Notes under the pieces: generated by a model | The model's database searches: none | The model's input: only the letters and a program-made list of their open reading frames with translations | Told to the model about the DNA's origin: nothing | Shown here: piece by piece, positions 2,840 to 52,560 of the stretch | How positions within the stretch are numbered: position 1 is the stretch's first letter | Layout: every line of letters starts with the position of its first letter | IMG/VR virus record: IMGVR_UViG_3300027797_000014 | Strand: one strand, 5' to 3' | Source of the DNA: an uncultured virus (IMG/VR IMGVR_UViG_3300027797_000014) | Taxonomy: Duplodnaviria; Heunggongvirae; Uroviricota; Caudoviricetes | DNA: 64,000 bases | Position numbers and translations under genes: made by a program

Positions 2840-2850
2840 TTTGTAAATTA
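2840..2850 (+). promoter_or_regulatory. Candidate phage promoter motif (TTTGTAAATTA variant)
   Basis: One-mismatch copy of TTTGTATATTA, which also lies upstream of genes at 15206, 45955 and 46741. Confidence 0.4.
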
Positions 2851-2863
2851 TAAATATAAGTGT

Positions 2864-3430
2864 ATGATAAACAATTTTAGAAAACCAGATTTAAAGGCAC
2901 CAAGATATAGAGAAAAAAGATTAGGTATATTAAATGAAGAAACAATAAAAGAATTTAAAGAAAAAAAACCTTTATATTCTAATATAGATAATGATAAATT
3001 AAAAAAGATAATAAAGCTTTATAATACAAATTTATGGGAAGCAGTAATTAAAAATAGAGATGGTGTAGAGTTACCTGATTCATTAGGATATTTGTTTATA
3101 GGCACATGTCCTTCTTCTAAAACGGTAAATACAAATTATGCACTATCTAAAGAATATGGTAAAGTATTACAAAACAAGAATTGGGAAACTGATGGAAACT
3201 TAGGTAAGATATTTTATACTAACTGGTCAACAAAATATAGATTTAAAAATAGAGAATTATGGAGATTTGTAGCTTGCAGAGAATTTAAAAGAGCAGTAGC
3301 TAAAACTTACCCAGAAAGCTGGACTAAGTATGTGGTGATGAAAAACAAATATAGAGTGGCTCATTTATATGATGTAAATACAGAAGAAACCAAAAAGGAA
3401 TTAGAATTATATAATGAATTTGAAACATAA
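2864..3430 (+). CDS. IHF/HU-like protein of the crAss-like structural module
   Basis: LKKIIKLYNTNLWEAVIKNRDGVELPDSLGYLFIG resembles the HU/IHF helix-helix-strand core. Its position before ring/tail genes matches crAss-like gene order. Confidence 0.55.
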   Translation: MINNFRKPDLKAPRYREKRLGILNEETIKEFKEKKPLYSNIDNDKLKKIIKLYNTNLWEAVIKNRDGVELPDSLGYLFIGTCPSSKTVNTNYALSKEYGKVLQNKNWETDGNLGKIFYTNWSTKYRFKNRELWRFVACREFKRAVAKTYPESWTKYVVMKNKYRVAHLYDVNTEETKKELELYNEFET

Positions 3431-5072: not shown

Positions 5073-8000
5073 ATGGCACAGCAAAATGAAAATCCTGGGA
5101 CATCTTCTGTAAATACTAATTCATTCATTAAAGGAATGAATAAAGATATTACGCAGGCAATGGAACCAAAAGAAAGTTGGTGGCATGCGCGTAATGCAAT
5201 GAATAATTCTACTGATGGAGATCTTGGTGTAATAGGTAATGAACCATCAAACTTACAATGTGGTGTAATTCCATATACAATTATTGGTGCTATACATAGA
5301 TATGCTGATCAGTGGATCATATATTCTACTGATGATATAAATTCAGAAATTGGTTTATTTGATGACAGTGAATGTAAGTATGAAGTTATTGTAAATGATC
5401 CTTGTTTAAATTTTAATAGAAAATATTTAATAGTTGGTGCAGCTAAAGAGAATTTTGATTGTACTTGGCAAGTATATTGGGATGATGGAAACAATCCTTC
5501 ACGCTCATTAAACATTAATAAAGTACCGTGGATTCAAACTGTATCTTCTGCACCTGGTGATCCTTGTGTTACTTTTGCTGATACAAAACAATTAAATTGT
5601 GAGAAAATAAGATTAGCTCCTTTAGTTGATACACCTTGTATTACTTTAAGTAAATCAATAGATGGTGGTATGTTACAAAATGGAGCATATCAAGCATTTG
5701 TTGCTTATACAGAAAATGAACAAAAGGTAACTGATTACATTGGTATTTCTAATGTTCAAACATTATGGTCACATGCCGGTACAGGGGGATCATTAAATCT
5801 TAAACTAAGTAATTTAGATAAAGATTATGATTACTATGAGTTAGTATTATTAGTTAGAAATCAAGGTCAGATATATGCTAAACGTATAGGTCTATATAGT
5901 ACACAACAACAAGATATTAACATTGATTATATTGATGATACATTAGTTGCTGTTAGTTTAAAAACAATACCTCAAAGAAGTCCTGCTTATGAAAAATCAA
6001 ATGCAATGTATGTTGTAAATGATTGGTTAATTAGACAAGGACCTGTGAGTCAATTTGATTTTAACTATCAACCAATAGCAAATGATATTAAAGTTAATTG
6101 GGTAGCAAATCAGATAGATGCTAGTTATTATCATTTAGGTGGTAATAAATTGGGATTCTTAAGAGATGAACAATATGCATTCTTTATTAGATGGATTTAT
6201 AACACAGGAGAAAGATCTTCTTCTTATCATATTCCAGGAAGAGCACCAAGGCCATTTACAACCCCTTCAGGGACATATCTAGAAACAGATATTATATATG
6301 GTGCTAATGTTTTAGACACGGCTGGAGATCCTTTATATAAGGTTTATAATACAGGAACAATTACATCATCAGGTTTAAATGAAGTTCAGCCAGATGGTTC
6401 ATTAGTTATTGCTAGAGGTGAAATGGGATATTGGGAATCAACTGAAAGATATCCTTCTAATAGACCAGACATTTGGGGTGACCTTTGTGGCAAGCCTATT
6501 AGACATCACAAGTTTCCCACTGAAGAAGTAGGGGGTGCAAATTCACCATTACATATAAGTACAACAAACGGAGATTTAATTAATGTCTTGGGTGTTGAAT
6601 TTAAAAATATTGGAAGACCAAAATATAATGATGGAACATATATACCAAATGTTGTTGGTTATGAAATATTAAGAGGATCTAGAGCAGGTGCCAAATCTAT
6701 TTTAGCAAAAGGATTATTTAGAAATATGCGTAAGTATACTATACCTAACGCAGAAAATTTAATAGGTGGTAATGTTCAAGGTTTATATCCTAACTATCCA
6801 TACAATGATTTAAGACCAGATGTTTATTTTCATGATGGTGCTGCTAATAGCATTCATAGAACAAATGGTTGTAATAGTTTTACTGAATCAATAATTAGTT
6901 TTAAACCATTGGGTTCAGCTCCGGCTATAGCAGGTGATCCTTCTGGATATTCTAAAAAAGTATTTACTTTTTCATCACCAGATCTAATGTTTACTAAGCC
7001 TTTTCTTAATGCTTATGAAACTAGACTTTATGGATATTTAAGTGGTAATCAATCAGGTGCTTTTAAAGCATCAGAAGATCATCCTCAATTTAAGTTACTA
7101 AGAAATGGTTCAGCAATAATAGCCTCAATTGTAGGTTTGGGTTATGCTATTGCTCAAATTCAAGGAGAAAGAGGAAGCACAAGATCATCAGGAACTTCTG
7201 GAGGGTGGATGGCAGATGATTTTGTTTTAGCTTTCGGTTCAGGTGCTTCAACAGGTGTTGTTGGAGTAGTGGGTGCTGGACCAAATTTTCTTTCAAATTC
7301 AGGTGGTGCTGCAATTAATGCAGGTATTATTGCTACTCTTTCAAATTTATATGAAAGTGGTGATAACGCTTTGGCTTTTCTTGATTTATGGGATGGTGGT
7401 CTAGGTATAGAACTTGCAGGTCAAGCATTTTCTACAGCCTCTAATACAGTAGGTATAGCTCCTGCAGGAATAAGTGGAGAATATGTAATTACTAATACTC
7501 AAAATACACCTCTTTCTCAATTACCAATAGCAATTACAGCATTTGTTACATTTTTTACATCAGCGGCAAATATTGCTATTGGTGGCAATGAAATAATAGA
7601 GTTAATTTATAATTTGGTTAACAAATCAGATTTTGTATTTAAATATAATTCAGCAGGATTTTTTAATCAATTTACAAAAATTAACACAGGATTATTTAGA
7701 ATTAAAAATACAGATTCAAATTATTTAGGTCAATCATTTCAATCATTTGATGGTGGTAAGTATAAAATAAATAATTTATTTAGACCATCTACTGTAGCTG
7801 TTTCTTTAACTGATGCTATAGCAGAACCAAGTGTAGTTGATACATCAAGATTTACAATTGGGGGAATGGTTAATGCTGATGGTACAACCACTGAATTTTC
7901 TGATGAATATTTAACTAATCCAACAGCTAAACAAAAAACATCTATATCTGCTTATTATGGTGCTCTTAAGTTTAATTTTGATAATCAGTATGGTCAACTA

Positions 8001-11000
8001 GATGGTATTAAGCAAGTTCAAATGAGAGGTTGTGTAGAATATTTAGATCCTACTAAACCTGATGCTTTTAAATATTCTAGTTCAGCTATATTTAGTGGTG
8101 ATATATTTATTACTAGATATACTGAAAAAGTTATTATGCCAATATTTGCTCAATATTTATTAGGGCAACCAGATGAATTTACATATGATTATTCTCAACA
8201 TACTAATATTCCATATCCAAGATTTTGGTTAAACTCCCAAAAATTTGACATGACTAAGTTGGGTAGAAGAATAGCAAGTTTTGGTATTAATTTTAATGAA
8301 AATGAATTAGATGCTTTGTTACCTAATGATTTATTTTATTTAGATAGAGGTAATGATAGTTGTGCTAATATTATTGCTACCATAATTGGTGAAAGTGATC
8401 CTAATCCAATGTTTGCTATGAGATACGCATATATGTATTGTCATTCAAATGGTATATTAGATTTCTTTGTTGAGTCTGAAGTTAATTTAGCAAATAGAGA
8501 TTGGGAAGATAGAGCTGATGCAAGAATATATGATGTATATGATTATAATGATTTAGATGAATTATTTCATGCACAAATAGAAAAGAAAGACAACTTCTAT
8601 AAATATGATGAATCATTAAGTCCATCTAAATTTGTAACACAGTTGGGTAGTTTTGGTGAGATTCAAGCAAGATACTATGATCCATATACTGCAGAAAATT
8701 GTTATGTTAGTTATCCAAAGAGATTAATCTATTCATTACAAGCACAGAAAGAATCTAAGAAAGATTTTTGGAGAGTGTTCTTGCCATTTAATTATCAAGA
8801 CTTTAAAAACAAAGTAAGTGTAATTAAACCTATTAATAAAAATGGTGCTCTTATATTCTTTCCTTATTTGTCACCTCAAATGTTTCAGGGAATAGATGAG
8901 TTAAGAACACAGTTAGATACTAAACTTACTATTGGTGATGGAGGATTATTTAGTCAACCATTCCAAAATGTTGTCAATTCAGATTTATCAAATGAATATG
9001 GTTCATGTGAAAGTTTAAGAAGTGTTATGAATACACCTGTAGGTTTGTTTTTTATATCTCAAGCTCAAGGTAAAATATTCCACTTTACTGGACAAACATT
9101 AGATCCAATATCTAATGCTGGAATGAAATGGTGGTTTAATAAATACTTACCATCTCAACTTGTTAAACAATATCCTCAATTAGAATTTTCACCACTATCT
9201 GATAATCCTGTAGTTGGTGTTGGTTGTCAAACAATCTATGATCCTAATGATGATATAGTTTACTTTATGAAAAAAGACTATAGAGTTAAGGCTGAATATA
9301 TTGCTAGTATTACATATACTGAAAATAGAGGATTTGCTTTATTAGGAAACCCTATTACATTAGGTGACCCAATATTTTTTGAAGATTGTTCTTGGACTGT
9401 AAGTTATGATCCCAAAGCTAAAGCTTGGATATCATTTCATGATTGGCATCCAGAATTTGCATTGCCTAGTATTAATCATTTCTTTACTACTAAGACAATG
9501 GTTACAACTATTCCACAATGTCCTCCGGGTTATATATATAATGCTAGTAATGGATTATGTGAACAATCAATTAATATTAGTGAACGTGCTATTATTACAG
9601 TAGATCAAGTTAACTCTACTATTACTGGTGGACCTGAAGATTGTTTGGTGGATATTATTGTTGCAATGGATACATCAGGCTCTACTGATTCAGAGGGACG
9701 CAAAGAAGCTCAATTAGCATGGTTAGATGCATTTTTAAAAGACTCTAATATAACTGCACCAATGGCTGCAGGTAAAATGCAGATAGGCTTTACATCATGG
9801 AGTTCTGGTAATATAAATTATAATATACCAAATCCATTGGGTGGTACTTGGTCAATGAGTAATACAGTTACCCCAAGTCAAGTTGCTGCCTGGTATAATA
9901 GTAACTGGCAAAGTGGAGGTACAAATGTTTATTTGGGTATGTCTAGTGGACAAACCAGATTAAATGCAAAGTCAACAAGTAAATTGGGTGACAGAAGTGC
10001 ACAACCTTCTTTTAGACAAATTTTAATATTAGTTACTGATACAACAAGTAATCCTGGTAATATAGGCTGTCCTTTTCAAGGCACAGGTGTTTCACCAAGT
10101 TCTACTGGTCCAGCTAATCAATTAGTATATGCATTGTATTGTGGTGCAACTAGTGCTGTACCAACTAATCCTGCTGTATTAACAAATATATCTTGTACAC
10201 CGGGACCTGTAAACGTTGATGGATATCAGTTTGGAATTAATGCTGCTGTACCTGCAACGTTTACTGCTGTAGCAGCAGCTATTGCGGGATCTGTTTGTTC
10301 AATTCCATTTGTTTGTACTTGTCCTACAGGTTATACAAAAGTGTTTTATGATTTACTGACAGCTACTTATTCTTCACCGACTGGTATATGTGATGATATT
10401 AAACCACCAATTTGTAGAAAAGTAACATGTACATGTCCAGTTTCTCCTGTAGGTACAACAACTACAACAACAGGAAACTGTGATGATGTTTATTTAGTTG
10501 GTAATCCTACCTATGCAAATCCAAATCCACAGATTTGTAATTTTTATAAATATGAATCTACACCGGCTAATTTTAAAGTTGGTTCATTCTGGAAACATAA
10601 TGTAAGGTGTGATAGTTTTGCTAATTTTTATGGTACTGATTATCCATGGGAAGTAGAATTGGTTTCTAATACAGGACAAATGGTTAATACCGTTAGAAGT
10701 ATGGAATACCAATTAGAAAACTATGTGTATAAAGGGGACATGGGATTTGCTTGTAATGATGATAGATGGGAAGATTTAGACTTTAACTTTGACCAATCAA
10801 TCATTTATAATAATGAACAAGTATCTGGGTTATTGTTATTAACTCCAACACCATATAACAATCCTATATTAGAATTGAGTTATCCTATTATCAATCTGAA
10901 TAGTATGAATATACTATGTTCTAAAGTAGAACAGAAATATAGATTCAATCAGTTCTATGATATTACTAATGATAGAGGAGAATTTACAAATGCTGAACAA

Positions 11001-11195
11001 GCAATATGGGAAACACAACCAAATGGATATATCAAAGTTTTAAATACTATAAACTTAAATTATAATAAAGCTCCATTACAACACAAGAAGTTTAGACATT
11101 ACTATACCAATGTTATTTTAAGAAGGGTTAAATCAGAAAATAGAAAGATGTTATTGAGATTGAATAACACTAAATTACTTTTATCAATGAGATAA
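5073..11195 (+). CDS. Tail muzzle / tail stabilization protein (crAss-like) with vWA insertion
   Basis: 2040 aa. N-terminal FIKGMNKD...GNEPSN, internal PIRHHKFP and WTVSYDPKAKAWISFHDWHP, C-terminal KKFRHYY...L fit the beta-propeller-rich muzzle family. DTSGS MIDAS motif at 9669-9683. Confidence 0.7.
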   Translation: MAQQNENPGTSSVNTNSFIKGMNKDITQAMEPKESWWHARNAMNNSTDGDLGVIGNEPSNLQCGVIPYTIIGAIHRYADQWIIYSTDDINSEIGLFDDSECKYEVIVNDPCLNFNRKYLIVGAAKENFDCTWQVYWDDGNNPSRSLNINKVPWIQTVSSAPGDPCVTFADTKQLNCEKIRLAPLVDTPCITLSKSIDGGMLQNGAYQAFVAYTENEQKVTDYIGISNVQTLWSHAGTGGSLNLKLSNLDKDYDYYELVLLVRNQGQIYAKRIGLYSTQQQDINIDYIDDTLVAVSLKTIPQRSPAYEKSNAMYVVNDWLIRQGPVSQFDFNYQPIANDIKVNWVANQIDASYYHLGGNKLGFLRDEQYAFFIRWIYNTGERSSSYHIPGRAPRPFTTPSGTYLETDIIYGANVLDTAGDPLYKVYNTGTITSSGLNEVQPDGSLVIARGEMGYWESTERYPSNRPDIWGDLCGKPIRHHKFPTEEVGGANSPLHISTTNGDLINVLGVEFKNIGRPKYNDGTYIPNVVGYEILRGSRAGAKSILAKGLFRNMRKYTIPNAENLIGGNVQGLYPNYPYNDLRPDVYFHDGAANSIHRTNGCNSFTESIISFKPLGSAPAIAGDPSGYSKKVFTFSSPDLMFTKPFLNAYETRLYGYLSGNQSGAFKASEDHPQFKLLRNGSAIIASIVGLGYAIAQIQGERGSTRSSGTSGGWMADDFVLAFGSGASTGVVGVVGAGPNFLSNSGGAAINAGIIATLSNLYESGDNALAFLDLWDGGLGIELAGQAFSTASNTVGIAPAGISGEYVITNTQNTPLSQLPIAITAFVTFFTSAANIAIGGNEIIELIYNLVNKSDFVFKYNSAGFFNQFTKINTGLFRIKNTDSNYLGQSFQSFDGGKYKINNLFRPSTVAVSLTDAIAEPSVVDTSRFTIGGMVNADGTTTEFSDEYLTNPTAKQKTSISAYYGALKFNFDNQYGQLDGIKQVQMRGCVEYLDPTKPDAFKYSSSAIFSGDIFITRYTEKVIMPIFAQYLLGQPDEFTYDYSQHTNIPYPRFWLNSQKFDMTKLGRRIASFGINFNENELDALLPNDLFYLDRGNDSCANIIATIIGESDPNPMFAMRYAYMYCHSNGILDFFVESEVNLANRDWEDRADARIYDVYDYNDLDELFHAQIEKKDNFYKYDESLSPSKFVTQLGSFGEIQARYYDPYTAENCYVSYPKRLIYSLQAQKESKKDFWRVFLPFNYQDFKNKVSVIKPINKNGALIFFPYLSPQMFQGIDELRTQLDTKLTIGDGGLFSQPFQNVVNSDLSNEYGSCESLRSVMNTPVGLFFISQAQGKIFHFTGQTLDPISNAGMKWWFNKYLPSQLVKQYPQLEFSPLSDNPVVGVGCQTIYDPNDDIVYFMKKDYRVKAEYIASITYTENRGFALLGNPITLGDPIFFEDCSWTVSYDPKAKAWISFHDWHPEFALPSINHFFTTKTMVTTIPQCPPGYIYNASNGLCEQSINISERAIITVDQVNSTITGGPEDCLVDIIVAMDTSGSTDSEGRKEAQLAWLDAFLKDSNITAPMAAGKMQIGFTSWSSGNINYNIPNPLGGTWSMSNTVTPSQVAAWYNSNWQSGGTNVYLGMSSGQTRLNAKSTSKLGDRSAQPSFRQILILVTDTTSNPGNIGCPFQGTGVSPSSTGPANQLVYALYCGATSAVPTNPAVLTNISCTPGPVNVDGYQFGINAAVPATFTAVAAAIAGSVCSIPFVCTCPTGYTKVFYDLLTATYSSPTGICDDIKPPICRKVTCTCPVSPVGTTTTTTGNCDDVYLVGNPTYANPNPQICNFYKYESTPANFKVGSFWKHNVRCDSFANFYGTDYPWEVELVSNTGQMVNTVRSMEYQLENYVYKGDMGFACNDDRWEDLDFNFDQSIIYNNEQVSGLLLLTPTPYNNPILELSYPIINLNSMNILCSKVEQKYRFNQFYDITNDRGEFTNAEQAIWETQPNGYIKVLNTINLNYNKAPLQHKKFRHYYTNVILRRVKSENRKMLLRLNNTKLLLSMR

Positions 11196-14100
11196 TGAAT
11201 AAGAAAATACAACATAAAGAACTAAGAGGTTTACCCGGTGGTCCAAATGAAATGCCTGTTTATGTTACAGGAGTATTTTCTACAGAAGGATTTAGGATAG
11301 ACAGCCCAGATGTTAATAATTATGAAAACATTATTCCATCTGGATCTATTACTATGAAAGAAAGAGATGGTAGTCCTTTAAGAAAGGGACCAATTCATGG
11401 TATAGATAATTTGGGTAATGAACAGGTAATGTATCCTGGATATGATTATGAATTTCCAGGAACAGAAGTAAAAGAAACATTACTTGCTAAAATGGGTGGT
11501 GGCTTATTAGATAAAACTATTAAGTGTGGTAACTGTGGTTGGGAATGGAAAGCTGCTGATGGTGGTTCTGATATTTATAATTGTCATAAGTGTCCTGGTA
11601 AAGGTGTAGTAAAAGCACAACCAGGTTATGAAGTTCCTAAAATGTATCCTGCACCAAGTCTAGAACTTCAGAAAAAAATACAAAGTTTTGTAGCACAAGA
11701 AGATGCTAAAAAGAAAGCTATAATAAAAGAACAAGAGGAATTAAAGAAGCAAGTTAAAGATAAACCTGTAATTGCAACTCTAAAGCCTAATTATAACAAT
11801 GCATTTAATACTGATATTTCAGGACCATATGGTAATGGATATACTCAGGAACAACAAAGGTATTTTGAAAGTAAAAATATTCCCCCTCATTTGTGGGATT
11901 CGTCAGAAGAAAAAAAACAATGGGATGCAGAAAAGAAAAGATTAGCGGAAGAAGCAATAGTACAAAGAAGAAAGGATGTTCAACAACAAGCCATTAAAGA
12001 TCTTAATGCTGGAAATTTTACAACAGCAAGAGCTGAAAATCTTGGTAATGCTTTTAGATTATTTCCAGAAGATGCAGATAGTTTTATTGATAATTATATA
12101 AACCCTTTCCAAATGGTGGGAAGTATGGCTGGCAACTTAGGTAGACATTTTGCAAGTGATGCTGGTCCATTAGATTTAAAAGCTCTTGCATTAGATGTAG
12201 CTGCTCCATTAGCTGTTGGTGCAATTGGAGGATTGGGAGCTAAATCAACAGGTAAATTTGCAAATAACATTCTTAATCCATTAGCTGGAACAGGAAGATA
12301 TTTAACAACAAAAACTCCTTTAAAAAATGCTTATAAGTTAAATCCTTTGGCAGCAAAAGAAAAGGATGTGGATATGTTATGGAGATGGGAAGCTGATCAA
12401 ATACCTGCAGCTTTACTTGCAAAAAATGCAGTACCTTCAAAATATACTGGTAGATGGTTTCAAAAAGGAGAACCTCATGAGATTATAGATTATCTTAGAT
12501 CAAGACCTGGACCCGGAACATTAAAAGGACTTGCTTTACCTAAAGGTGTAGCAACTTTACCATCAGATGCAGCAAAATTTACTGGTTCTGAGTCATTAAA
12601 AAATATTGAAAGAATTGTTCCTTCAGACGCTTTAAAAAATACAACAGATTTTAGATTAGAAAATAATCCTTTTAGTGAAATAGATAATCCCAATTTTCTT
12701 GAAGATTTTAAATATTTAAATCCATTATTTAATAATGCTAAAATTAAACCAAATTGGTTAGATGGGTATGCTACAAAAAAATTAAATGTAGGAGATATAG
12801 CAAACAACTTAGGTGGTAAGTATTTACCAAATGCATATAAATTTAATCCTTTTGCATTTAAACCTAAGAGTGACGCATATTATAGACAAATTGGAGAACC
12901 CGGTTATTTGAATGCAATACAAGAAGGTAAAGTTTTATCAAAAGGTCAAAAAGAATTTTTAGCAAATAATCCTGAATTTAATTATTGGGATGAATATAAT
13001 GAGTATATTGATTATGCTAATAGAAATGGAGGACTATATCTTAGAAAGCCAACAACTGCACCATTTTTTCAAAAAGGAGAATTATTTTTTCCACCATCTA
13101 ATAAGACAGGATTTGGAAGAGGTAAAACAGCACAGTCAGACGTAAAGTATTTACTTGAAGGAAAATTACCGGATCAAGCAATAATACCAAGATATAGAGA
13201 TCAACCATTAAGTAAAGAAGTATTTTATGGTCCAAATGGTGGTACAGGAGTTTTAGATTCTAGATATAGTGATTTATCAAATTTTGAAATATATCAACAG
13301 GATTGGTTAAGAGGATACAAAAAAAAACAAGATGGTGGAGAACAAGAGTTTGTTAGACCTCCTGACTTACCTATATTGCCTAGTGATGCTGGTACTTTTA
13401 ATAACTGGCTTTATGAAAAAGCAGATAAAAGACAGAAGCGTTTACAGGCAGAGTTTGATGTTAAAGATGCAGCAGATAAAGAAGGACGTTACATTAATAA
13501 GGCTAAGTATTTTGATTTGCTTACTACAGAGTTCTATGGACCTGATAGACCTTATGAAGAACTAACTGAGGATGAACAAACAAACATTAACAATATTCAT
13601 AAAAATAGAAAAGCTAGTATACAAAATATTAATTTAGTATCCTCTGACTTATCTAAATATGGTATCAAGGCAGGATATGATCCTAACTTACATACAATGT
13701 ATGTTCCTGAAGTTCCTACAGATAGAGGTGTACTTTCTCATGAGTTTTCTCATATGGGTGATCAAGCAATATTTGAAGAAGGTGTTAATCCTGGAGTAGG
13801 TACATACTTTACAGAACAACTTACCAATTCTATTTATCCAAAACAAAGCCCTGATTTCTTAAATCAACCTTCTAGTCTTAAGAAAAATAAGACTGTAGGA
13901 GAGAACATAGAAGAGGGTTTTAATGAAGCAGACTATTTACAAGATCCTTCTGAAGTAAAGGCAAGACTTCGTGCATTAAGAGATTCTTCAATTCAACAAG
14001 GATACAAGTTACTAGAACCCGGTTATAACATTAATAAATACAAAGAAGGGTTTAATAAAGAGGAGAAGAAGCAGTATGAACAACTTAAGAAGTCTGGTTT

Positions 14101-15175
14101 ATCTGATGATAAAATAAATGAGATGATGTACTTGTTTGCTAAGAATAATCAAACACAACCCACAATGGGAAAGAACGGTGTTGAAGTTATAGCACAAAAT
14201 GGTGGAGAAGAAACTTCTTGGAGTGATTACTTAAATCCTATGAACTGGGGTGTTAGTAATAGAGATGATGCAGGTACATTTAAACAAGCGTTTAGAGCAG
14301 CACGTATTGACGGTGATTCTGATTTCTTATATCAAGGAAAAAGATATTCTACAGAGTTAAAAGCTACACCATCAGCACCCGCTAAACCAAAAGGAATAAC
14401 ACCAGAACTTTTAATAAGACAAGCCTATAGAGAATCTGCATTTAATCCTAATGCTGTTTCTCCAGCAGGTTATAAAGGTTTAGGACAAATTGGAGATGGT
14501 GTAATTAAAGATTACAAAAAGGCAAACAATATTACAGGTAGTGTTGATCCTTTTAATATGAAACAAAACTCTGAAGTTCAAAAGTATTCAATGAATGAAT
14601 TATACAATTCAAGTTTTATTAATAAACCAGGACAATCAGAACAAGTAAGATTAGCAAAAACTTTAGCTGCATATAATTGGGGTAGAACTAATGTTATTAA
14701 TTTATTGAATGATTTAAAAGAAGATGGTGTTGATATTTATAATAGTTTAGACTGGATTAGCAAATTACCAGATGAACCAAAAAAATATATTAATGATATA
14801 CTATTACAAAAAAATACTACCTTTAACACTGATTTTTCTAAGGCATTAGGTAATCAAAAGAATCTACCAATAAAACGTTTATATGGTTTTAGAGATGGTG
14901 GTGAATCAAAACCAGGGCCATTAATGCAGTCTTATAACAGACTTCCAATGGAAAAGAAAATGGGAGGTGCTATTGTTAATAAAAAACAATTTGGTGGCCA
15001 ATTAAATTCTGGTAACATTACTATGTATAAAGATTATATAAAAGGTAATATTGAAAATGAAACAGAAGCAATAAAAAACTATGATAAGTTAAATAGGATT
15101 TATTATAGTAAAGCAAAAGAACTAGGAATGAGTGCTGCAAATTACATAATGACGTATATTGTAGGCAACTCTTAA
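11195..15175 (+). CDS. Modular virion cargo protein: Zn ribbon, two ART-like cassettes, zincin (HEFSH), lytic transglycosylase
   Basis: CGNC...CHKC; VLSHEFSH at ~13730-13753; SLT motifs QAYRESAFNPNAVSPAGYKGLGQ and LAAYNWG at ~14400-14690. Confidence 0.7.
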   Translation: MNKKIQHKELRGLPGGPNEMPVYVTGVFSTEGFRIDSPDVNNYENIIPSGSITMKERDGSPLRKGPIHGIDNLGNEQVMYPGYDYEFPGTEVKETLLAKMGGGLLDKTIKCGNCGWEWKAADGGSDIYNCHKCPGKGVVKAQPGYEVPKMYPAPSLELQKKIQSFVAQEDAKKKAIIKEQEELKKQVKDKPVIATLKPNYNNAFNTDISGPYGNGYTQEQQRYFESKNIPPHLWDSSEEKKQWDAEKKRLAEEAIVQRRKDVQQQAIKDLNAGNFTTARAENLGNAFRLFPEDADSFIDNYINPFQMVGSMAGNLGRHFASDAGPLDLKALALDVAAPLAVGAIGGLGAKSTGKFANNILNPLAGTGRYLTTKTPLKNAYKLNPLAAKEKDVDMLWRWEADQIPAALLAKNAVPSKYTGRWFQKGEPHEIIDYLRSRPGPGTLKGLALPKGVATLPSDAAKFTGSESLKNIERIVPSDALKNTTDFRLENNPFSEIDNPNFLEDFKYLNPLFNNAKIKPNWLDGYATKKLNVGDIANNLGGKYLPNAYKFNPFAFKPKSDAYYRQIGEPGYLNAIQEGKVLSKGQKEFLANNPEFNYWDEYNEYIDYANRNGGLYLRKPTTAPFFQKGELFFPPSNKTGFGRGKTAQSDVKYLLEGKLPDQAIIPRYRDQPLSKEVFYGPNGGTGVLDSRYSDLSNFEIYQQDWLRGYKKKQDGGEQEFVRPPDLPILPSDAGTFNNWLYEKADKRQKRLQAEFDVKDAADKEGRYINKAKYFDLLTTEFYGPDRPYEELTEDEQTNINNIHKNRKASIQNINLVSSDLSKYGIKAGYDPNLHTMYVPEVPTDRGVLSHEFSHMGDQAIFEEGVNPGVGTYFTEQLTNSIYPKQSPDFLNQPSSLKKNKTVGENIEEGFNEADYLQDPSEVKARLRALRDSSIQQGYKLLEPGYNINKYKEGFNKEEKKQYEQLKKSGLSDDKINEMMYLFAKNNQTQPTMGKNGVEVIAQNGGEETSWSDYLNPMNWGVSNRDDAGTFKQAFRAARIDGDSDFLYQGKRYSTELKATPSAPAKPKGITPELLIRQAYRESAFNPNAVSPAGYKGLGQIGDGVIKDYKKANNITGSVDPFNMKQNSEVQKYSMNELYNSSFINKPGQSEQVRLAKTLAAYNWGRTNVINLLNDLKEDGVDIYNSLDWISKLPDEPKKYINDILLQKNTTFNTDFSKALGNQKNLPIKRLYGFRDGGESKPGPLMQSYNRLPMEKKMGGAIVNKKQFGGQLNSGNITMYKDYIKGNIENETEAIKNYDKLNRIYYSKAKELGMSAANYIMTYIVGNS

Positions 15176-15205
15176 ACTTTAAAAATTAGTAAATCTATTG
15201 ATTTA

Positions 15206-15216
15206 TTTGTATATTA
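15206..15216 (+). promoter_or_regulatory. Candidate phage promoter motif TTTGTATATTA
   Basis: Identical 11-mer in three intergenic regions, each upstream of a + strand gene. Confidence 0.5.
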
Positions 15217-15235
15217 ATAATATAATGTAAGCACC

Positions 15236-17680
15236 GTGAAAGTAAACAAAATAAGTTTAAAGCAAGAGGGAGGACAAACTGTTGAACAAGTTGAGGCACA
15301 ACCACAACAACAATCAATAGATCCCGCTGTACAACAAATTTCAGATTATATTTCTCAAGCAATTAGTCAAGGACAAAATGCTGCAGAAGTTGTTATGTCT
15401 TTAATTCAACAACAAGTTGATCAACAAACTATTGGTCAAGCTTTGATGATGAATGGTTTTGAAGAAAATGACATCATGTCTTTGTTTGAACAAATGAGTC
15501 AAGGACAAGAAGAAGTTTCTAATGAACCAGGAAGTCCTGATGATTTAAATAATAATCCTCAAGAAATTTCTAGAAATGAAAGCTTGGAAGCTGCTGAGAT
15601 GTCAGAAGAAGAAATGCAAGATCCTGGAATGGAAATGGGTAAATCAGGGATAGAAATTAAATCTGAGAATGAAGGCAAGTTTACTAGATGGGCTCAAGCA
15701 CGTGGTATGTCTGTACAAGAAGCTGCAAGTAAAGTTATGTCTAATACAGATGAGTATCCACCAGCTGTAGTTAAGATGGCAAACTTTGCTAAGAATGCTG
15801 CTGGTTGGAAAAAACAAGATGGTGGTGGAACAGATCCTATTAATAGTCAAGTTAATTCTGGAATTAATAAAAGTAATAAATTTGAAAGAGGTACAAGAAT
15901 AATAGATCAGTATGCTCCTCAATTAAATATGAAACCTGATACATCATATATGTATCAATCTGATAATGGACCTCAATTTTATTCTAGTACTAAAAAAAAT
16001 CCTGCTACAGATAAACCTTATTTTGAATATACTAATGGTAATAATACTAGTACAAACATGTCTAGTGATTCTACCAACATGTATATGAATAGAATAAAAG
16101 AGTTAGCTGGTTATCAAATGGGTGGTGTTCCTCAAGGTAAAGTAGCAGCAGTTAATAATGTATCTGCTGGTAATAAAGATATGAATTGGCAAAGTGCTCC
16201 ATTGTATATGAACCCAATGGCATTTGAATCAAATGATAATTTTAGTTTAGGTAAAGCTGCTGCTGTTATTGGTGGTGGTTATAAAGAATTTTTAAGTGGT
16301 GCAGATGAAAATAAAGATGGTATCAAAGATGGTTTCTTTAGAGATGGTAAGAAAAAAGCAGGTATAAGAGATGCAACTAAAGGTGATTATTATAATTATA
16401 AAGTTACTCAAGATGCTAATGATACAAATAAATATGTGTCAGATAATACAGATTTATTTAATGCTTCAAAAAATAAAGGTAACTTAAGAACAGTTGATCA
16501 ATATAATAAAGATGTATTAGATAACTCAAGATTTAATTATAATACGGCTACAAATAGTTATGATGGTATTCAAAGCAGTAGACCAATAGATGAAAGAATT
16601 TATAATTCAGATAATAATAAAAATGCTTTAGCGGGTAAAGATTATAATTATTTAAAGAGTATGGATAAAGCTACCAAAGATATGATTACTGGTACTAAAG
16701 ATGATCCACAAGGAACTACACTTGGTATTGATGATAAAGGTCAAGCTTCATCTTATGCACCAGGTGCAGATAATCCATATGAATATAATACTTATATGGG
16801 TATTAATAAACTGGGAGTTAATCAAAACTCAATCATACCTACTGGAAATAATGGTCAACCTACTGCCGGTATGTTTAATACACAACCTACAAATACACCT
16901 CCAAGGATTCCGCAAAAATCATTTAATGAGTGGAAAACGTATGATGCTGTAAGAAATCAAAGTAAAAGTCCAAGTGATCTTTCATCTGAATATAGTAAAT
17001 ATCTCAATGAAGACTATCTTAAAGAAGAATATAGATATGGTGGAGATCTAATGCAAGTTGGTGGTGAACCAATGTCTAAAGATGAATGGATGAATGCAAA
17101 TGGAAGAGGTTTAATGGGACAAGAATCAATTGATGAAAATGATTATCAAAAATATGCAACTTCAATAAAACCACCAGTTGCAACTCAAACACGTTTTACA
17201 CCTTCAACAAGTTTACCATCATTTGCACCTTCCAGTTCATTTTTAGGAAAAACTCCAAGTACGCCAGCTGTACCAGCTGCACCAACTTTTGAACCACCAA
17301 AAGTAGAGAGAACAAATAATATTGAAGGTGGTTTTAATAGATTTATGGATAGTCCGGGTATGCAAGGTTATACAAAATTGTCTAACTTTGCAGTGCAAGG
17401 TGCGGATCTAGTTAATGATTATTTTAGGGATAAAAGTATTAATCAAGCAAAAGAAGATAACTTTAATAAGTTAGGTGCTGATTATCAATATGCTACTGCA
17501 GAAGATCCTTTCAATAAAAGAGGACTGTGGGATATTAATACAGGAACTGCAGGAAGTGAAGGAGATAGAACAACCGGTTTATATTTGAGTAAATACGGTG
17601 GTGAAAACAATACTGTAAATGTTGATTCAAATTTATTAGCAAAATTAATTGCAGCGGGAGCTGACATTGAAATATTATAA
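15236..17680 (+). CDS. Putative internal virion (cargo) protein, low complexity, multiple xGG motifs
   Basis: GTG start; Q/E-rich N-terminus; IEIKSENEGKFTRWA...ANFAKNAAGWK module that I recognise from crAss-like virion proteins; DENKDG Ca-loop-like segment. Confidence 0.55.
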   Translation: MKVNKISLKQEGGQTVEQVEAQPQQQSIDPAVQQISDYISQAISQGQNAAEVVMSLIQQQVDQQTIGQALMMNGFEENDIMSLFEQMSQGQEEVSNEPGSPDDLNNNPQEISRNESLEAAEMSEEEMQDPGMEMGKSGIEIKSENEGKFTRWAQARGMSVQEAASKVMSNTDEYPPAVVKMANFAKNAAGWKKQDGGGTDPINSQVNSGINKSNKFERGTRIIDQYAPQLNMKPDTSYMYQSDNGPQFYSSTKKNPATDKPYFEYTNGNNTSTNMSSDSTNMYMNRIKELAGYQMGGVPQGKVAAVNNVSAGNKDMNWQSAPLYMNPMAFESNDNFSLGKAAAVIGGGYKEFLSGADENKDGIKDGFFRDGKKKAGIRDATKGDYYNYKVTQDANDTNKYVSDNTDLFNASKNKGNLRTVDQYNKDVLDNSRFNYNTATNSYDGIQSSRPIDERIYNSDNNKNALAGKDYNYLKSMDKATKDMITGTKDDPQGTTLGIDDKGQASSYAPGADNPYEYNTYMGINKLGVNQNSIIPTGNNGQPTAGMFNTQPTNTPPRIPQKSFNEWKTYDAVRNQSKSPSDLSSEYSKYLNEDYLKEEYRYGGDLMQVGGEPMSKDEWMNANGRGLMGQESIDENDYQKYATSIKPPVATQTRFTPSTSLPSFAPSSSFLGKTPSTPAVPAAPTFEPPKVERTNNIEGGFNRFMDSPGMQGYTKLSNFAVQGADLVNDYFRDKSINQAKEDNFNKLGADYQYATAEDPFNKRGLWDINTGTAGSEGDRTTGLYLSKYGGENNTVNVDSNLLAKLIAAGADIEIL

Positions 17681-17682
17681 CT

Positions 17683-20205
17683 ATGGCAAAAATTAAAATA
17701 AATAGTTTACCTGCAGGCTTTAAATTAGTTAATGGTAAAATAGAAGAAGATCAAATGATGAGAGAAGGTGGCTATGTAACTGGTGATCAAGCTGGTTATG
17801 GATTAGTTACTCTACCTCAAGAGTATTACAATAATGCTAATTTTAATACTACAAGAGATGAATCTGTTAGATACAGTTTATCTGGCGTACCCAGAGACAA
17901 AGCAAACATTGAAGCTGAAGGTGGTGAAACAGTATTAACTGATTTAAACAATGACAATCAATTTGGTCTGTACAATATTACAGGACCAAGACACTCTAAA
18001 GGTGGTGTGCCAATGTTTTTACCAGAACAATCTTTTATCTATTCTGATACAGATAAAATGAGATTTAATCAAGAAGAGCTTGCTGAGTATGGTATAGAAA
18101 CTAAATTAAAAATGACTCCTGCTCAAGTATCTAAAAGATATGATCTTAATAAATATTATGGTACTATGCAAGATCAATTTGCTGATGAGATAACTGCACG
18201 TAGTTCTGAACTTATGTTAAAGAAAAACATGATGGGTTTATCTAAATTAGCATTTGGTCAAGAACTTAAAAAGAAATTTGAAGATGGGGTGCCTTTAGCA
18301 GCTCATCCATACTTAGTTTCTATTGGAGAAGACCCTATAGACTTTACTGCAAAAATGGAAAACATTACTAAGAAACAAGCTCAGATGAAAGCCTTTGCTG
18401 CTTTATCTCCTGATCAACAACAACAGTTATTACAGTTGCAGGAAATGATGGCTCAGATGGATGAACAACAACCTCAACAAGAACAATCTTTTGAAGATCC
18501 TGGTATGCAACAACAACAATTAGCTATGGCTGATGAAGATGTTATGGCTATGGGTATGCCTGAAGATGGTATGGCAAGATATGGTAGAGAAATAGCTAAG
18601 TACCAAGTTAAAGGTGAAACTCCTACTAATCCTTTTAAACCTGGTACTGAGAATTATGCAAAAGCACAAGAGATGATTGACTCTGGTAAATATGAAATGG
18701 TTAAAGGTGATGTTGTAAAGGGTCAACAGATGTATCAATTTAGAGAAATTAAAACTGAAGATCCAAAATTTAAAGCAGATAGAGAAGCTCAATTAAAAAA
18801 AGAAAAGATTTCTGGTCAAAATCAAAAAGGGCAGGGTTCTGTATCTATTTATGGTGAAGTTATTGCTGGTCAAGAAAAAGCAATAAATGAAAGCCCTATT
18901 GGTATTTATAAGTCTGGTAGATTATCAGCAGGTAATAGACCCGCACTTCAAAATAAAACTGGTAAAGCATATGGTTCTGCAGATATAAAAACTCCAGAAT
19001 CAAAAGCAGATTTTATGGATAGATGGAGTGATGTTGCTGCAACAATACCCGGATTTGATTTTGATAAAGCACCCGATGATCCTCAATGGGCGCAGTTTCA
19101 AACAAAAGCTGAAGATGTTAGAAGAAAAGAACATATTGCAGCATTTGGTAATGATAAAGATTATGAACCATATTGGAAAAAACCAGGTGATAAAGGTTAT
19201 GTTAGGGGTCAAGGCTTTGATAGTAAACTAGGATTGCATACTTATAATGCTCCACGTTTTAGACTTAATCCTGTAAAATCTAATGATGTTGAATTAGGTC
19301 TTGATATTCCAGAACCAGAACCAGATCCAAAAAAACCTTTAGAAACTTCTCAACTTCAAGAATATATACAACCTCAACCAGAATGGTGGAGACAAGATGT
19401 AAATAATTTAAATGCATTAAATTTAATTGATGATAATTTATATTTACCATGGGCACCAGATGCTGCACCAGCTAAAATAGATTATGTATTAGATGACTGG
19501 AGAAGTAATGCTAATGCAAATTTATCAGCTGCAAATACTATGGCTCAAGCATTAGGTGCTGCAGGTGGACCACAAGCTGTGGCTAATTCAAATATTCAAG
19601 GTACTGCAATGGATGGAATTGCTCAAGGTATTAATAGAGTTAATACTAATAACGTTGGTATAATGAATCAGGTAGCTCCAATGCAAGCTCAATTAAATAT
19701 GCAAGTTGATGCAATCAATCAAGGTAGAAACATGAAGGTTTATGATGATACCCAAAAGACTTTGCAAAATAGTGATAACTTTCAGAATTGGAAGATTGGC
19801 AAACAAGCTGAACTATTTAATACTGCACTTACTAATAGAGCTAACACATATAACTTAAATTCAACATTTGATCACTATGCTATAGATCCAACATCAGGAG
19901 GTGGTATTAATTATACAAATTCAAGAGCTTATGAAAAAGTTGGACCACAACCAGATAGACAAAAGGCTTTTCTAGATGCATATACTACATTAAGAAAAAA
20001 CTTACCAAAAGATCAAACAGTTGATAAAGGTATAATGGAAATGTATATGGGTATGGCCCCTAATGAAAATCCTAATATAACCAATGCACAAGCAGAATTA
20101 CAAAGAAGAGGTTTACCTCAAGTTGGTCCATTGTCTCAAAATAAAAGAGGAAAAGAAATAAAAAGAATGATAGTACCATTCTACACAGGAAAGATGGGAG
20201 CATAA
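17683..20205 (+). CDS. Putative internal virion (cargo) protein
   Basis: NIEAEGGETV...GPRHSKGGVP...FIYSD domain typical of crAss-like cargo proteins; Q/N/A-rich helical C-terminal half; located upstream of the RNAP block. Confidence 0.6.
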   Translation: MAKIKINSLPAGFKLVNGKIEEDQMMREGGYVTGDQAGYGLVTLPQEYYNNANFNTTRDESVRYSLSGVPRDKANIEAEGGETVLTDLNNDNQFGLYNITGPRHSKGGVPMFLPEQSFIYSDTDKMRFNQEELAEYGIETKLKMTPAQVSKRYDLNKYYGTMQDQFADEITARSSELMLKKNMMGLSKLAFGQELKKKFEDGVPLAAHPYLVSIGEDPIDFTAKMENITKKQAQMKAFAALSPDQQQQLLQLQEMMAQMDEQQPQQEQSFEDPGMQQQQLAMADEDVMAMGMPEDGMARYGREIAKYQVKGETPTNPFKPGTENYAKAQEMIDSGKYEMVKGDVVKGQQMYQFREIKTEDPKFKADREAQLKKEKISGQNQKGQGSVSIYGEVIAGQEKAINESPIGIYKSGRLSAGNRPALQNKTGKAYGSADIKTPESKADFMDRWSDVAATIPGFDFDKAPDDPQWAQFQTKAEDVRRKEHIAAFGNDKDYEPYWKKPGDKGYVRGQGFDSKLGLHTYNAPRFRLNPVKSNDVELGLDIPEPEPDPKKPLETSQLQEYIQPQPEWWRQDVNNLNALNLIDDNLYLPWAPDAAPAKIDYVLDDWRSNANANLSAANTMAQALGAAGGPQAVANSNIQGTAMDGIAQGINRVNTNNVGIMNQVAPMQAQLNMQVDAINQGRNMKVYDDTQKTLQNSDNFQNWKIGKQAELFNTALTNRANTYNLNSTFDHYAIDPTSGGGINYTNSRAYEKVGPQPDRQKAFLDAYTTLRKNLPKDQTVDKGIMEMYMGMAPNENPNITNAQAELQRRGLPQVGPLSQNKRGKEIKRMIVPFYTGKMGA

Positions 20206-29400: not shown

Positions 29401-32400
29401 ACAAGAACTAGAAACGCTTAAAGCAGAACTTACTAAAGGATTAACTGGAGCAGCTAAAATTAAAGCTGTAAAAGAAAGTAAAAAGTATCAAGATCTTTTA
29501 GATAACAGAAAAAGATTAGAAAAAGAAGCTAATAAGATAGTTTCTATTGAAGATGCTATTGCTGATGCTGAAGACATTGATGTATTTACAGCATGGGCTT
29601 CAGGAAATCTTCCAGATTTTATTACAATAGATGATATTGAAAGACTAGGTAATAATCTTAAAGCTGGAGGAGTACGTGTTGGTGCATTTGTATTAAACCT
29701 TAATAATATTGGTGGAGGATTAACTGTTAATGGTACATTGTTTACTGGAGCTAAATCTCCGTTTAAATATCATGAAGCATTCCACGGTGTATTCAGAATG
29801 TTATTATCTGATACTGAAATTAAAAAATATTTAGCAATTGCTAGAAAAGAAGTAAGGGCAAAACTAAGAGCAGAAGGTAAAAGCTTTAAAGCCGAATTAG
29901 AAAGATTCAAAAATTCAGCTAATACTTATTCTGATATGAGTCCTGAAAGATTAGAACAAGAATACTATGAAGAATATTTAGCTGATGAATTTGAAAAATT
30001 TAAAGCAAACGCAAAGTCAACTCAGACAGATTCTACTGTCAAGTCTTTATTCACTAGAATTATGGAGTGGATTAAGTCTGTATTCAAATCCTTTACTAAG
30101 AATGAATTACTTACTTTATTTGAAAACATTGATTCTGGCAAGTTTAAAAATGCGTCAATAAATTCAAATCAGTTTGTTACTAGTTTAATGACTGGTGTAT
30201 CATTAGAAGCAAATGCTTTATTACCATATGATACAGAACAGAATGCCAACAATAAAGTTGGGTACTATTTCTTAGATAGTGCTATTGCTGAACCTTTAGT
30301 TTCAAGTATAGCTGCTATGTATATACAAGAAATTGCAAAAGTAAAAGATCCAAATGTTAAACGCGGGGACATACTTGAAAACGTTATAGATGATTTTGCT
30401 GCTTTATATGATGAAGAAACTGAAGCAAATCAAAAACTTTCAGATGAACAGAAAAAATTCTTACCTCAAATAAGTGAAGTATTTTATAATTTCTCTGATG
30501 AACTAAAGGCTGAAGTATACAAAGTATTAAACATTATAACTAAACAAACTCAAGAAGAAGAATATAACAATGAGTATTTTGAGGAGGAAGTTGGTTTAAG
30601 AAATGTAGAGCAATATAATATGGATGCTTCTATGATTGGTGGATTTGGTTCTTTATCTGAAGGATTAAGAAGTTACTTAGCTACAACAACAATAGAGGAA
30701 ACAGATTACTTTGGTAATAAAGAATTAAAGCCAGGAGTAAAACTAATTGTTCCAATTAACTTTGTATCTGCTTATAATGGGTTATTAAAAGCTGTTAAGA
30801 ATATTGATGATCCTAAAAAGATGTTACAGAACATGTACTTCTTTGGACTAGATAATCCTCAGACTGGTGCCGTTGTAACAAGATTACTACAAGACTTTGG
30901 TATATCTGAAGAAACATTATTAGAGTCAGGTCCATTACCTACTAAGATTAAAAATGCTGCTTTATTTCAATCTGTTGTAAAAGGATTTACAACATTTAGA
31001 GTAGACTACTTATTTGTACAAAGAGATAATGCCGGTGCAGTATTAATTTATTCTGCTGCACAAAGAGATGATATTAATTCACAACTAGAATCATGGTCTC
31101 AAGCTTGGGGACAAGCTGAAAAGAAAATTAAATCTGATGTTAAAGTTAAAAATGAAACTATCAAAACATTAGAAGATTTTGCAAGTTATTTAAAACCTAG
31201 TGATACAAAACTTACTGATCCAAAATTATCTGAGTTATCTTCTAAGTATTCACAAGATATTTTTAGACTTACAGGTATTAAATTAAGTAAACAGTTTATT
31301 GCATTTAGTATTGCATCATCAAGAAATAATCCTACAGTTGCACAAGCAGCATTATTAAATGCTAATTCTGAACAAACACCTATAAGCTATGGTGATATTC
31401 TTGAAATAAATAAATTAATTCAACAGGGTAATGACATCTTTAGTGAAGGAAAAGATGGAGCTGATTCTAGACTTAGAACATTAGCAATTCAAAATGCACC
31501 CTTTGATGAAACAATTGGAGCATCTGTATTTAAAAACCCTGAAGGTAACTTAGTATATGCACATCAATTACCAACGTATCATTTAAAAAGAATACAAGAG
31601 TTAAATGACATGTCTGAACTAGAACGCCTTATTGAATCTGATCCTTACTTAGCAAATAACTTCTTATTGAATAGTGAGGCATTTAGACAAATGTCTGCAG
31701 AAAATAGACAAAAGGTATTAAGAATAGCAGGAAGTAGTGTTGGTAAAATTAATAATACAGAAGAAGAACTTAATGATAAAATATCAGGTGTATCTAATAA
31801 ATCAACTTATGGTAATTATACACCACAAGAATTTGCACTAAGTATAATTAATACTTACACCGCTTTATTAAATACTAAAAGTAACAAGGTTGATTATGTA
31901 GAATATTATGATAATATACTTGAGAAAAATGTTAAGTCTGCATTAGCACCAGTATTGCTAAGAGTATTAGAAGCATCAAATACAGGAGATTTAATGTATA
32001 TGCCTGTAATTAAAGCAGTTAAGTTTAATAAACCGGGTGGTAAAGTTGTATTAACTGATGAAGTTATTGATGCATTTGTTAACAGAATTGAAACTGAGTA
32101 TGATAGAATTAGAAGAGAGTCAAATCCTGAAACTAAAACTGAAGAAACTCAACTTGGTTACAACACTGATAATGGTAGAGCATTTCAATTAATAAATACT
32201 GGTTTATTACTTACTCCAGAACTAAAAAGTTCTTTAGAAGAAATTGCAAAACGTGAGGATGCACCTTCATTAAAAGATGCTTTAAAAGAATTAAATGTAA
32301 CTAATAATGCTTTTAGAACTGTTGTTAATACACAGTTAGAAAGTCAATATGATGTATTCTCTAAAGGTTTGGTAGATTTAAAAATAGAAGAACAATTAGG

Positions 32401-48052: not shown

Positions 48053-48325
48053 ATGAAAGCTCAAGGTTTACAACAAGGTAAGATATCTAAACAAAGCGTA
48101 AAGCTATTGTGTAGAACAGGGGGAGAATTAGATGATGCTATGCAAGGATCTATGGTTGAAAAAATGAGAAAAGGTGGTGATGCTATGAGATATGCATCTA
48201 ATGCTGATGGTTCAAGAAAGAAACAAGCATATAAAATGGGTGGTTATATTCAATCAGAAACAAAAAAATATAGAGGTGGTGGTGTACCAACAGCATTTAT
48301 TTATTCTGGGTCATCTAAAAAATAA
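48053..48325 (+). CDS. Small basic protein with four xGG motifs
   Basis: CRTGG, MRKGG, YKMGG, YRGGG. Confidence 0.7.
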   Translation: MKAQGLQQGKISKQSVKLLCRTGGELDDAMQGSMVEKMRKGGDAMRYASNADGSRKKQAYKMGGYIQSETKKYRGGGVPTAFIYSGSSKK

Positions 48326-52395: not shown

Positions 52396-52560
52396 ATGAA
52401 AAAATATCAAATAGGTGGAAGCATGCAATCACGCACAAGTGATGAATTAAATCCTAACAAAATGAAAAGTAAAGTTGCACCTAACCCCGGTTTTGTGCCA
52501 TCTGGTTCAATGAGTCAGATGAAAAAAGGTGGTCAAGTTAAAAAATCAAAAAAATACTAA
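52396..52560 (+). CDS. Small basic protein, 54 aa, with two xGG motifs (not in the ORF track)
   Basis: Translated by hand: MKKYQIGGSMQSRTSDELNPNKMKSKVAPNPGFVPSGSMSQMKKGGQVKKSKKY. Confidence 0.75.
   Translation: MKKYQIGGSMQSRTSDELNPNKMKSKVAPNPGFVPSGSMSQMKKGGQVKKSKKY

Follow-up and report, generated by a model that had tools for sequence, protein, structure and literature searches.

Three adjacent genes in a fragment of an uncultured phage genome (IMG/VR record IMGVR_UViG_3300027797_000014) code for proteins that are strings of cassettes, and these cassettes are swapped at a short, glycine-containing peptide motif. The stretch analysed here (the window) is 64,000 nucleotides long and forms part of an 81-kb phage fragment. 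A consensus built on 127 copies of the motif, spread over 34 genes, reads (K/M/F/A/Y)-(Q/K/R/A)-x-G-G; an E frequently comes next, and A-Q-x-G is a variant. The copies were chosen by pattern, and the consensus is a description rather than a test. The motif is real, resides at the protein level and is conserved across the Crassvirales. It is most likely an undescribed processing mark, because it holds the position of a T4-like protease site in the same module (see below); the chances of such a mark, cut within or just after the Gly-Gly pair, appear about even. Literature searches returned no description of the motif, although supplements and most subscription papers lay outside these searches and may hold decisive peptide maps.

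The phage is crAss-like, since its muzzle gene matches the Pfam family crAss_MUZ. Upstream of the cargo genes, the Crassvirales models CrAss_Ring_2, CrAss_Ring_1 and crAss_MUZ all score above the Pfam cut-off, on two ring genes and the muzzle gene. The RNA polymerase polyprotein, 4532 amino acids (aa) long, has DFDID at residue 3561, which corresponds to the DFDxD of the giant virion RNA polymerase. The 81-kb fragment is without a crAss-type major capsid protein; the complete relative G005 has one (Crass_capsid, E 6e-30). The three motif-rich genes come right after the muzzle gene, where crAss001 has the cargo protein C1 (gp45), and, judging from this gene position and the crAss001 data, their products are probably packaged and ejected.

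5073..11195, plus strand: muzzle protein gene (Pfam crAss_MUZ, E 1.7e-26; no match to the motif weight matrix)
11195..15175, plus strand: 1326-aa modular cargo-position protein; orthologues of 539-2141 aa carry different cassettes between the motif copies
15236..17680, plus strand: 814-aa modular cargo-position protein; six GG copies (15260, 15812, 16112, 17030, 17051, 17588) and G-K-S-G (15638)
17683..20205, plus strand: 840-aa C1-like cargo protein

An earlier note on this DNA had listed 16 peptides of this kind in the three genes, and all of them are present. The pattern [QKR]xGG occurs 14 times in their 2980 aa, against a shuffle mean of 3.74 (maximum 11; none of 2000 shuffles reached the observed number), and six times in three tiny open reading frames (ORFs) against a mean of 0.78 (0 of 2000). 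The remaining ORFs are at chance level, with 9 copies vs 8.06 in the 23 other plus-strand ORFs (126 of 301) and 5 vs 3.02 in the 43 minus-strand ORFs (50 of 301). The comparison with shuffled and other proteins that the note had proposed thus found the motif raised in the three genes and the tiny ORFs, and at chance level elsewhere. Since bare GG is only weakly raised (29 vs 20.8; 89 of 2000), the signal resides in the residues preceding it. One of the 14 copies, N-R-N-G-G (gene 11195, residues 609-613), is located within a module and probably arose by chance.

A weight matrix trained on 106 sites from five distant relatives alone matches the three genes ten times (null 0.89; maximum 5 of 300) and the next three genes, which include the RNA polymerase, once (null 1.14). 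The 18 matches in the whole record fall in the three genes (10), three tiny basic ORFs (5), the C2-position gene (1) and replication genes (2); the label 'C2-position', like 'scaffold' below, is a presumptive one, taken from gene position or general background. A general capsid-packaging signal, one of the roles the earlier note had offered, is weakened by this distribution: there is no enrichment in the C2-position gene or in the RNA polymerase genes, and homologues of the latter are packaged in crAss001.

The note had also described the motif as dominating tiny basic ORFs at 48053, 49163 and 52396. This holds for two of them, while ORF 49163 has just L-A-N-G-G and no [QKR]xGG. An 82-aa basic ORF at 49402-49650, with the matrix match K-A-K-D-G, is a better candidate than ORF 49163.

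48053..48325, plus strand: 90-aa basic protein with four motif copies
52396..52560, plus strand: 54-aa basic protein with two motif copies, one of them N-terminal

The architecture of the first cargo gene is as follows.

11486..11500, plus strand: motif A-K-M-G-G; its second Gly lies 9 residues ahead of the first Cys of the Zn ribbon
11525..11593, plus strand: Zn-ribbon cassette, residues 111-133; non-crAss phages also have this cassette, flanked by [ILVMF]-x-E
11615..11626, plus strand: motif variant A-Q-x-G; homology with six relatives ends at the Gly
11627..13324, plus strand: variable cassette of two similar-bordered units ('ART-like' in the earlier note; the label is unverified)
13325..13339, plus strand: motif K-Q-D-G-G
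13340..14167, plus strand: cassette that carries a zincin-type HExxH (residue 849); unaligned in 11 orthologues
14168..14206, plus strand: tandem motifs G-K-N-G and A-Q-N-G-G
14381..14704, plus strand: lytic transglycosylase (SLT) domain (Pfam PF01464, E 2.2e-10)
14888..14998, plus strand: motifs F-R-D-G-G, K-K-M-G-G and K-Q-F-G-G; a 60-75 aa cassette stands between the last two in three relatives

Comparison of this protein with its 11 orthologues (539-2141 aa), an alignment that the earlier note had suggested, shows that they gain and lose entire motif-bounded cassettes. By profile matches, the cassettes of different orthologues include SLT, LysM with YkuD, peptidoglycan-binding, SET and DUF6973 domains. 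Of the internal alignment ends in the gene 11195 family, 52 of 102 fall no more than 6 aa from a motif glycine (null 11.3, maximum 28); in the gene 15236 family the count is 19 of 63 (null 7.0, maximum 16), and in the window's own proteins the numbers are 7 of 12 and 3 of 10. These ends are non-independent, and the pattern was chosen after inspection. The claim that the copies fall at domain boundaries is borne out in so far as cassettes are exchanged at the motif, but the two 'ART-like' units are not parted by it. The domain labels given in the note fared unevenly: the SLT domain is supported and the Zn ribbon has a weak profile match (E 0.016), while the zincin is suggested by HEFSH at residue 849 only, for which there is no profile match; the HExxH cassette, unaligned in the 11 orthologues, is optional and no constant part of the protein. 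The 'ART-like' units (residues ~378-525 and ~546-708) have no meaningful Pfam or NCBIfam match. They form a tandem at 12326-13324, each unit starting with N-A-Y-K-x-N-P, ending with W-L-x-G-Y and preceded by a hydrophobic, glycine-rich stretch; similar borders recur in orthologues, as a second, inner layer of swappable tips that resembles polymorphic toxins.

Such precise exchange at the motif is also what a translated DNA recombination site that shuffles the cassettes would produce. This explanation is very improbable and was rejected on codon use and free synonymous variation. Among the 127 copies all four Gly codons are used near background (GGT in 87 and 78 of 127 vs 1624 of 2737), 11 different GG codon pairs occur and the x codon is free; in the six relatives whose homology ends at the A-Q-x-G glycine, x and the synonymous positions are likewise free at the base level. 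No conserved inverted repeat was found at the junctions (25 longest). Since codon use within the motif equals background, the constraint sits on the peptide.

The second and third genes repeat this organization, and add an N-terminal leader.

15650..15808, plus strand: basic module homologous to crAss001 gp45 residues 376-423 (BLASTP E 4e-5)
15827..16111, plus strand: ~95-aa cassette between two motif copies, which are 6 aa apart in five relatives
17683..17772, plus strand: N-terminal leader (K-I-K-I-x-x-L-P ...) ending in M-R-E-G-G
17851..18288, plus strand: domain with a weak structural match, in its predicted model, to the part of crAss001 gp45 that is bound to the portal
18574..18585, plus strand: motif variant A-R-Y-G; A298 and G301 are invariant in 11 orthologues

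The basic module is followed by the motif both in gene 15236 and in gp45; in the archaeal virus vir520 the same module forms a 112-aa gene of its own, which does not carry the motif. Among 50%-identity representatives, 1840 are related to the 840-aa protein at E <= 0.001. In the top 150 of these, 114 bear the leader, defined by a K/R-V/I/L-K/R/N-V/I/L start (the 36 leaderless ones, many of them fragments, were left out), and 84 of the 114 have the motif in their first 45 aa, vs 6.9 in random windows. Residues 1-240 are predicted with a score (predicted local distance difference test, pLDDT) of 81, and a VIA comparison of this model places the crAss001 C1 structure (7QOG_M) at rank 3 of 48161, a weak match (Z 4.6, root-mean-square deviation 3.9, 100 of 126 residues aligned). 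Pfam, BLAST, hhalign and Foldseek on the PDB gave no link of the 840-aa protein to the gp45 portal-bound domain. One good copy, M-Q-E-G-G (22182), lies in the adjoining 1063-aa gene at the C2 position (20265-23456) and reads V-K-E-G-G in G005; this gene is not enriched at the family level, and BLAST does not connect it with crAss001 gp46. No direct match in sequence was found that would tie the 840-aa or the 1063-aa protein to gp45 or gp46 of crAss001.

The Zn-ribbon cassette, which occurs with either kind of flank, allows the motif to be placed in register with the T4-type protease site. T4 gp21 cleaves after L/I-X-E, as stated in passages of PMC9026906, and the sites of T4 Alt are ITE-6 and LTE-619 in those of PMC5694885. 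A profile scan confirmed 563 Zn-ribbon loci; the best 80 of the 563 and two other loci gave 74 distinct contexts, which were divided by eye into a GG-type (16) and the rest (58). Counted from the first Cys, position -9 holds Gly in 16/16 GG-type contexts and Glu in 51/58 of the others, and [ILVMF]xE stands there in 49/58 of the latter vs 2% background. Downstream of the ribbon, the Glu and the motif glycine both cluster at +9 to +11. The two kinds of context also belong to different phages. Family searches on 49 Zn-ribbon records (15 GG-type and 34 others, long records preferred) found the crAss muzzle in 15/15 GG-type records and 0/34 others, and the T4-type S77 protease in 0/15 GG-type records, including 4 near-complete ones, and in 7/34 others, including 2/2 near-complete ones; most of the 27 S77-negative others are short fragments. 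In the seven S77-positive records [ILV]xE stands exactly at -9 in five and at -11 in one, while one has no such upstream site.

A second small basic cassette was compared in 78 contexts, drawn from the first 80 of >120 matches and two other loci. It starts as Met-[SG]-L-x-x-W-F in 12, as [ILVMF]xE followed by x-L-x-x-W-F in 8, and as motif-G followed by G-L-x-x-W-F in 15, where the start is the second glycine of the motif; 8 further contexts have [ILVMF]xE 5-12 aa upstream and 4 fit nothing. From these three types of start it follows that the natural start, the T4-type site and the G/G bond coincide. The two cassettes together put a functional module boundary within or just after G-G. Related observations come from aquatic phages with a T4-type protease (L059, L060, L064-L138), in which proteins of 200-1000 aa look like strings of modules separated by L/I-x-E; the Zn-ribbon, small basic and ferritin-like modules are common to them and to crAss-like phages. 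When further cassettes in common with the L/I-x-E phages were sought by BLAST, matches to the Zn ribbon overwhelmed the search.

The motif could instead be a flexible hinge or unfolding break, conserved for its mechanics and spread by recombination, which would let the modules thread singly through the tail. Cargo must partly unfold at constrictions of <50 Å, according to passages of PMC10172136; the ending of homology at the motif and a loose DNA similarity of 17-37 nucleotides around the copies would also agree with such a break. It is an improbable explanation, as a hinge needs neither Q/K/R at -2 nor a bulky residue at -3, has no need for copies in 54-90 aa proteins or at protein ends, and would give no reason for S77 phages to use L/I-x-E instead.

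The motif is also present in cultured crassviruses. In jaberico gene 49 it occurs 6 times vs 0.36 expected (0/3000) and in crAss001 gp45 5 times vs 1.29 (28/3000); in DAC15 gene 59 the copies are degenerate and the strict pattern is not significant (2 vs 0.9; 694/3000), and genes of the gp46 type have no copies. The parts of PMC10172136 that describe the virion give gp45 two resolved pieces, 214-245 and 425-552, which are ~420 Å apart. These fall between different motif copies (206 and 260; 424 and 559), and the four gp45 mass-spectrometry peptides named in its text cross no copy. In the crAss001 portal (gene 644-3064 of locus L023), the modelled barrel ends at residue 739, adjoining G-G 740-741; the sequence there, Q-S-E-G-G, is a poor match to the motif and may be chance.

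Outside the Crassvirales, a complete 63-kb phage (G062, L266-L267) carries the motif on small basic proteins near the terminase and portal and on proteins in the ejection position. The enrichment is modest (12 vs 4.7 over 53 ORFs; maximum 13 of 500). This phage has no muzzle match, in a search made without a positive control, and no S77 or ClpP match; a 219-aa unknown protein of it gave no usable Atlas match. The presence of the motif in an S77/ClpP-negative phage favours a host enzyme or a docking role.

Several observations weigh against cutting. Searches for a dedicated protease in crAss-like relatives were negative (S77 in 0/15 GG-type records, S78 in 0/5 and ClpP-type in 0/3 complete relatives). 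The capsid protein, portal and presumed scaffold of G005 have no matrix match; in T4 the capsid and scaffold classes are cut, the portal excepted. The register is ambiguous by one residue, GG ending 8 residues before the Cys in 12/16 contexts and 7 in 4/16. For the second cassette, G-G-L stands without the motif prefix in 17/78 contexts, so that the glycines there may belong to the module. The sequences in both comparisons are related and the counts are non-independent events, and L/I-x-E cutting in these uncultured phages is presumed from T4. In crAss001, most tryptic peptides of gp45 that span a copy would be 28-65 aa long, and their absence from the text therefore says little. Finally, the portal-bound model of gp45 starts at 425 in the portions of the paper describing it, and so includes the A-F-G-G of the copy at 424-428, which could mean that the site is uncut or that cutting takes place ahead of the glycines; 7QOG chain M has 126 residues vs the stated 425-552, so that the model may not start exactly at 425.

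Some of these points would be expected if the motif were an uncut docking handle, i.e. a peptide that binds scaffold, capsid, portal or a C1 domain, and thereby tethers modules and tiny basic proteins during head assembly, these being handed on at ejection. We regard this as possible, though less probable than processing. It agrees with the A-F-G-G at 425-428 of the gp45 model, with the lack of an S77/S78/ClpP-type protease in the crAss-like relatives searched, and with the motif on small basic and ejection-position proteins of the 63-kb phage. Passages of PMC8402733 add a precedent from P22, where the scaffold recruits ejection proteins and mature gp7 keeps an N-terminal K-G-G-K-G after the host OpdA cut and binds procapsids via residues 21-154. 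A tether needs neither copies at both cassette ends nor a one-residue register with L/I-x-E, however, and a docking handle sits poorly with the lack of enrichment in RNA polymerase and C2-position genes, though their crAss001 counterparts are in virions. In the predicted model of the 840-aa protein the motif region (residues 25-30) has a pLDDT <50 and does not visibly pack against the domain it belongs to.

Searches for a protease that would cut at such a mark brought up few candidates. The Pfam search on 43 late proteins of G005 gave the S74 tail chaperone as the sole protease-like match, and no Pfam match to a cysteine or JAB protease was found among 38 window and 43 G005 late proteins, no search by family name having been made. 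The conserved gene after the capsid gene does not look like a protease in the well-predicted half of its model (pLDDT 56), where the resemblance, with Z up to 7.7, is to RecA C-terminal and SAP/CARD-like folds; its first 190 residues are poorly predicted, and it may still be one. In the Atlas this gene matches hypothetical clusters only. The sole constant protease-like feature seen is in the RNA polymerase polyprotein gene.

29771..29785, plus strand: HExxH in the gene of the 4532-aa RNA polymerase polyprotein (23498-37096), a candidate

The zincin domain of phi14:2 gp65 has been suggested to act on the polymerase or peptidoglycan, in passages of bioRxiv 10.1101/2020.03.07.982082. The parts consulted of a 2023 Crassvirales review (PMC10136315) contain no protease passage, and 'protease' and 'cleav' do not occur in the main text of PMC10172136. 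How semi-tryptic peptides can prove such sites is exemplified in a passage of PMC10052503.

Adenovirus, African swine fever virus (ASFV) and ubiquitin-like proteases, which cut after di-glycine motifs, were the analogy drawn in the earlier note. T4 gp21 processing is a nearer analogue. As described in passages of PMC9026906 and PMC5694885, the T4 capsid targeting sequence (CTS)/gp21 (S77) system likewise has a short, basic N-terminal leader closed by a 3-5 residue site (here in 84/114 leader-bearing homologues), repeated sites in core-like proteins and the same position in a common cassette. It differs in that Gly replaces Glu here at the presumed cut (16/16 GG-type), there is no S77 (0/15) and capsid and scaffold are unmarked; the sites here part functional modules in polyproteins, whereas T4 mainly removes propeptides. 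The motif works like a T4 targeting-and-cleavage signal, yet is no member of the T4 system. With crAss001 C1 (gp45; PDB 7QOG) the proteins have in common the gene position after the muzzle, one module (E 4e-5), the motif and, possibly, the portal-bound fold, to which the match is weak, but here three genes with enzyme cassettes stand at the C1 position.

Polyvalent proteins are also packaged multidomain proteins, with lysozyme, zincin metallopeptidase and other domains, for which passages of PMC5512222 propose autoproteolysis. Those passages contain no junction peptide, 'crAss' and 'glycine' occur 0 times in the main text, and the zincin cassette is optional here; it is the architecture, and not the junction peptide, that this concept describes. 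P22 gp7/OpdA, as far as described in PMC8402733, is a podovirus ejection protein with a removable N-terminal leader by K-G-G and needs no phage protease; it differs in having one site, cut before the glycines, a dispensable leader and no repeated junction motif.

The polyprotein-or-tether proposal of the earlier note is directly supported as regards modular cargo with the motif at its joints (orthologue cassettes, alignment ends). Its proposal of cutting at xGG has indirect support, in the register match with T4-type sites and in natural N-termini, and one crAss001 site that looks uncut stands against it. As a processing mark, (M/F/Y/K/A)-(Q/K/R)-x-G-(G) would be a protease recognition site that plays the role of L/I-x-E for crAss-like C1-type cargo. 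Precursors would be loaded into the prohead, with leader and joints cut at assembly or ejection, which would release single modules: transglycosylase, peptidoglycan-binding and metallopeptidase domains, and small basic and Zn-binding peptides. Since any domain between two copies would be freed, the motif would allow free cargo swapping. The cut might be made by a peptidase of the host or by the phage itself, either with a diverged enzyme or with the zincin in its RNA polymerase polyprotein.

According to the current view, crassviruses assemble without proteolysis. A cut mark would change the single-chain model of C1, explain the free swapping of cell-wall and anti-host enzymes, offer annotators a simple rule for dividing cargo genes into domains, and lead towards a new protease. 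A docking peptide, if that is true instead, would provide a small tag by which proteins can be loaded into the heads of crassviruses. More tentatively, and with somewhat less than an even chance, the Crassvirales, cultured gut members included, and at least one unrelated podovirus group may run an undescribed glycine-directed processing code, in which cargo polyproteins are cut into enzymes and basic peptides by a protease, possibly one of the host, and a single pool of cassettes travels from one phage order to another, exchanging x-G-G, L/I-x-E or a start codon at its flanks. In that case gp45 of crAss001, treated as one stretched chain in the passages of PMC10172136, would be in pieces in the virion and not threaded 420 Å through the portal. 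Cultured phages (crAss001, jaberico), and perhaps mass-spectrometry data that already exist, would allow a direct test of the processing reading.

Some neighbouring features of the window complete the description. The muzzle protein (5073-11195) has an optional insert of ~200 aa (residues 1520-1729), vWA-like by eye, which is missing in relatives G003, G004 and G014 and whose borders are without the motif. After the RNA polymerase gene, 37103-42883 codes for a 1926-aa protein with a PD-(D/E)XK nuclease-like domain at 471-562, possibly a packaged nuclease. Genes for the large and small subunits of ribonucleotide reductase (43026-45642, minus strand) separate the polymerase genes from a second late cluster, which comprises lysis-like, tiny basic and fibre genes. 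A GroES co-chaperonin is found in the head module of a crAss-like relative (L026 11057-11335) and of the motif-bearing non-crAss phage (L266 10084-10542).

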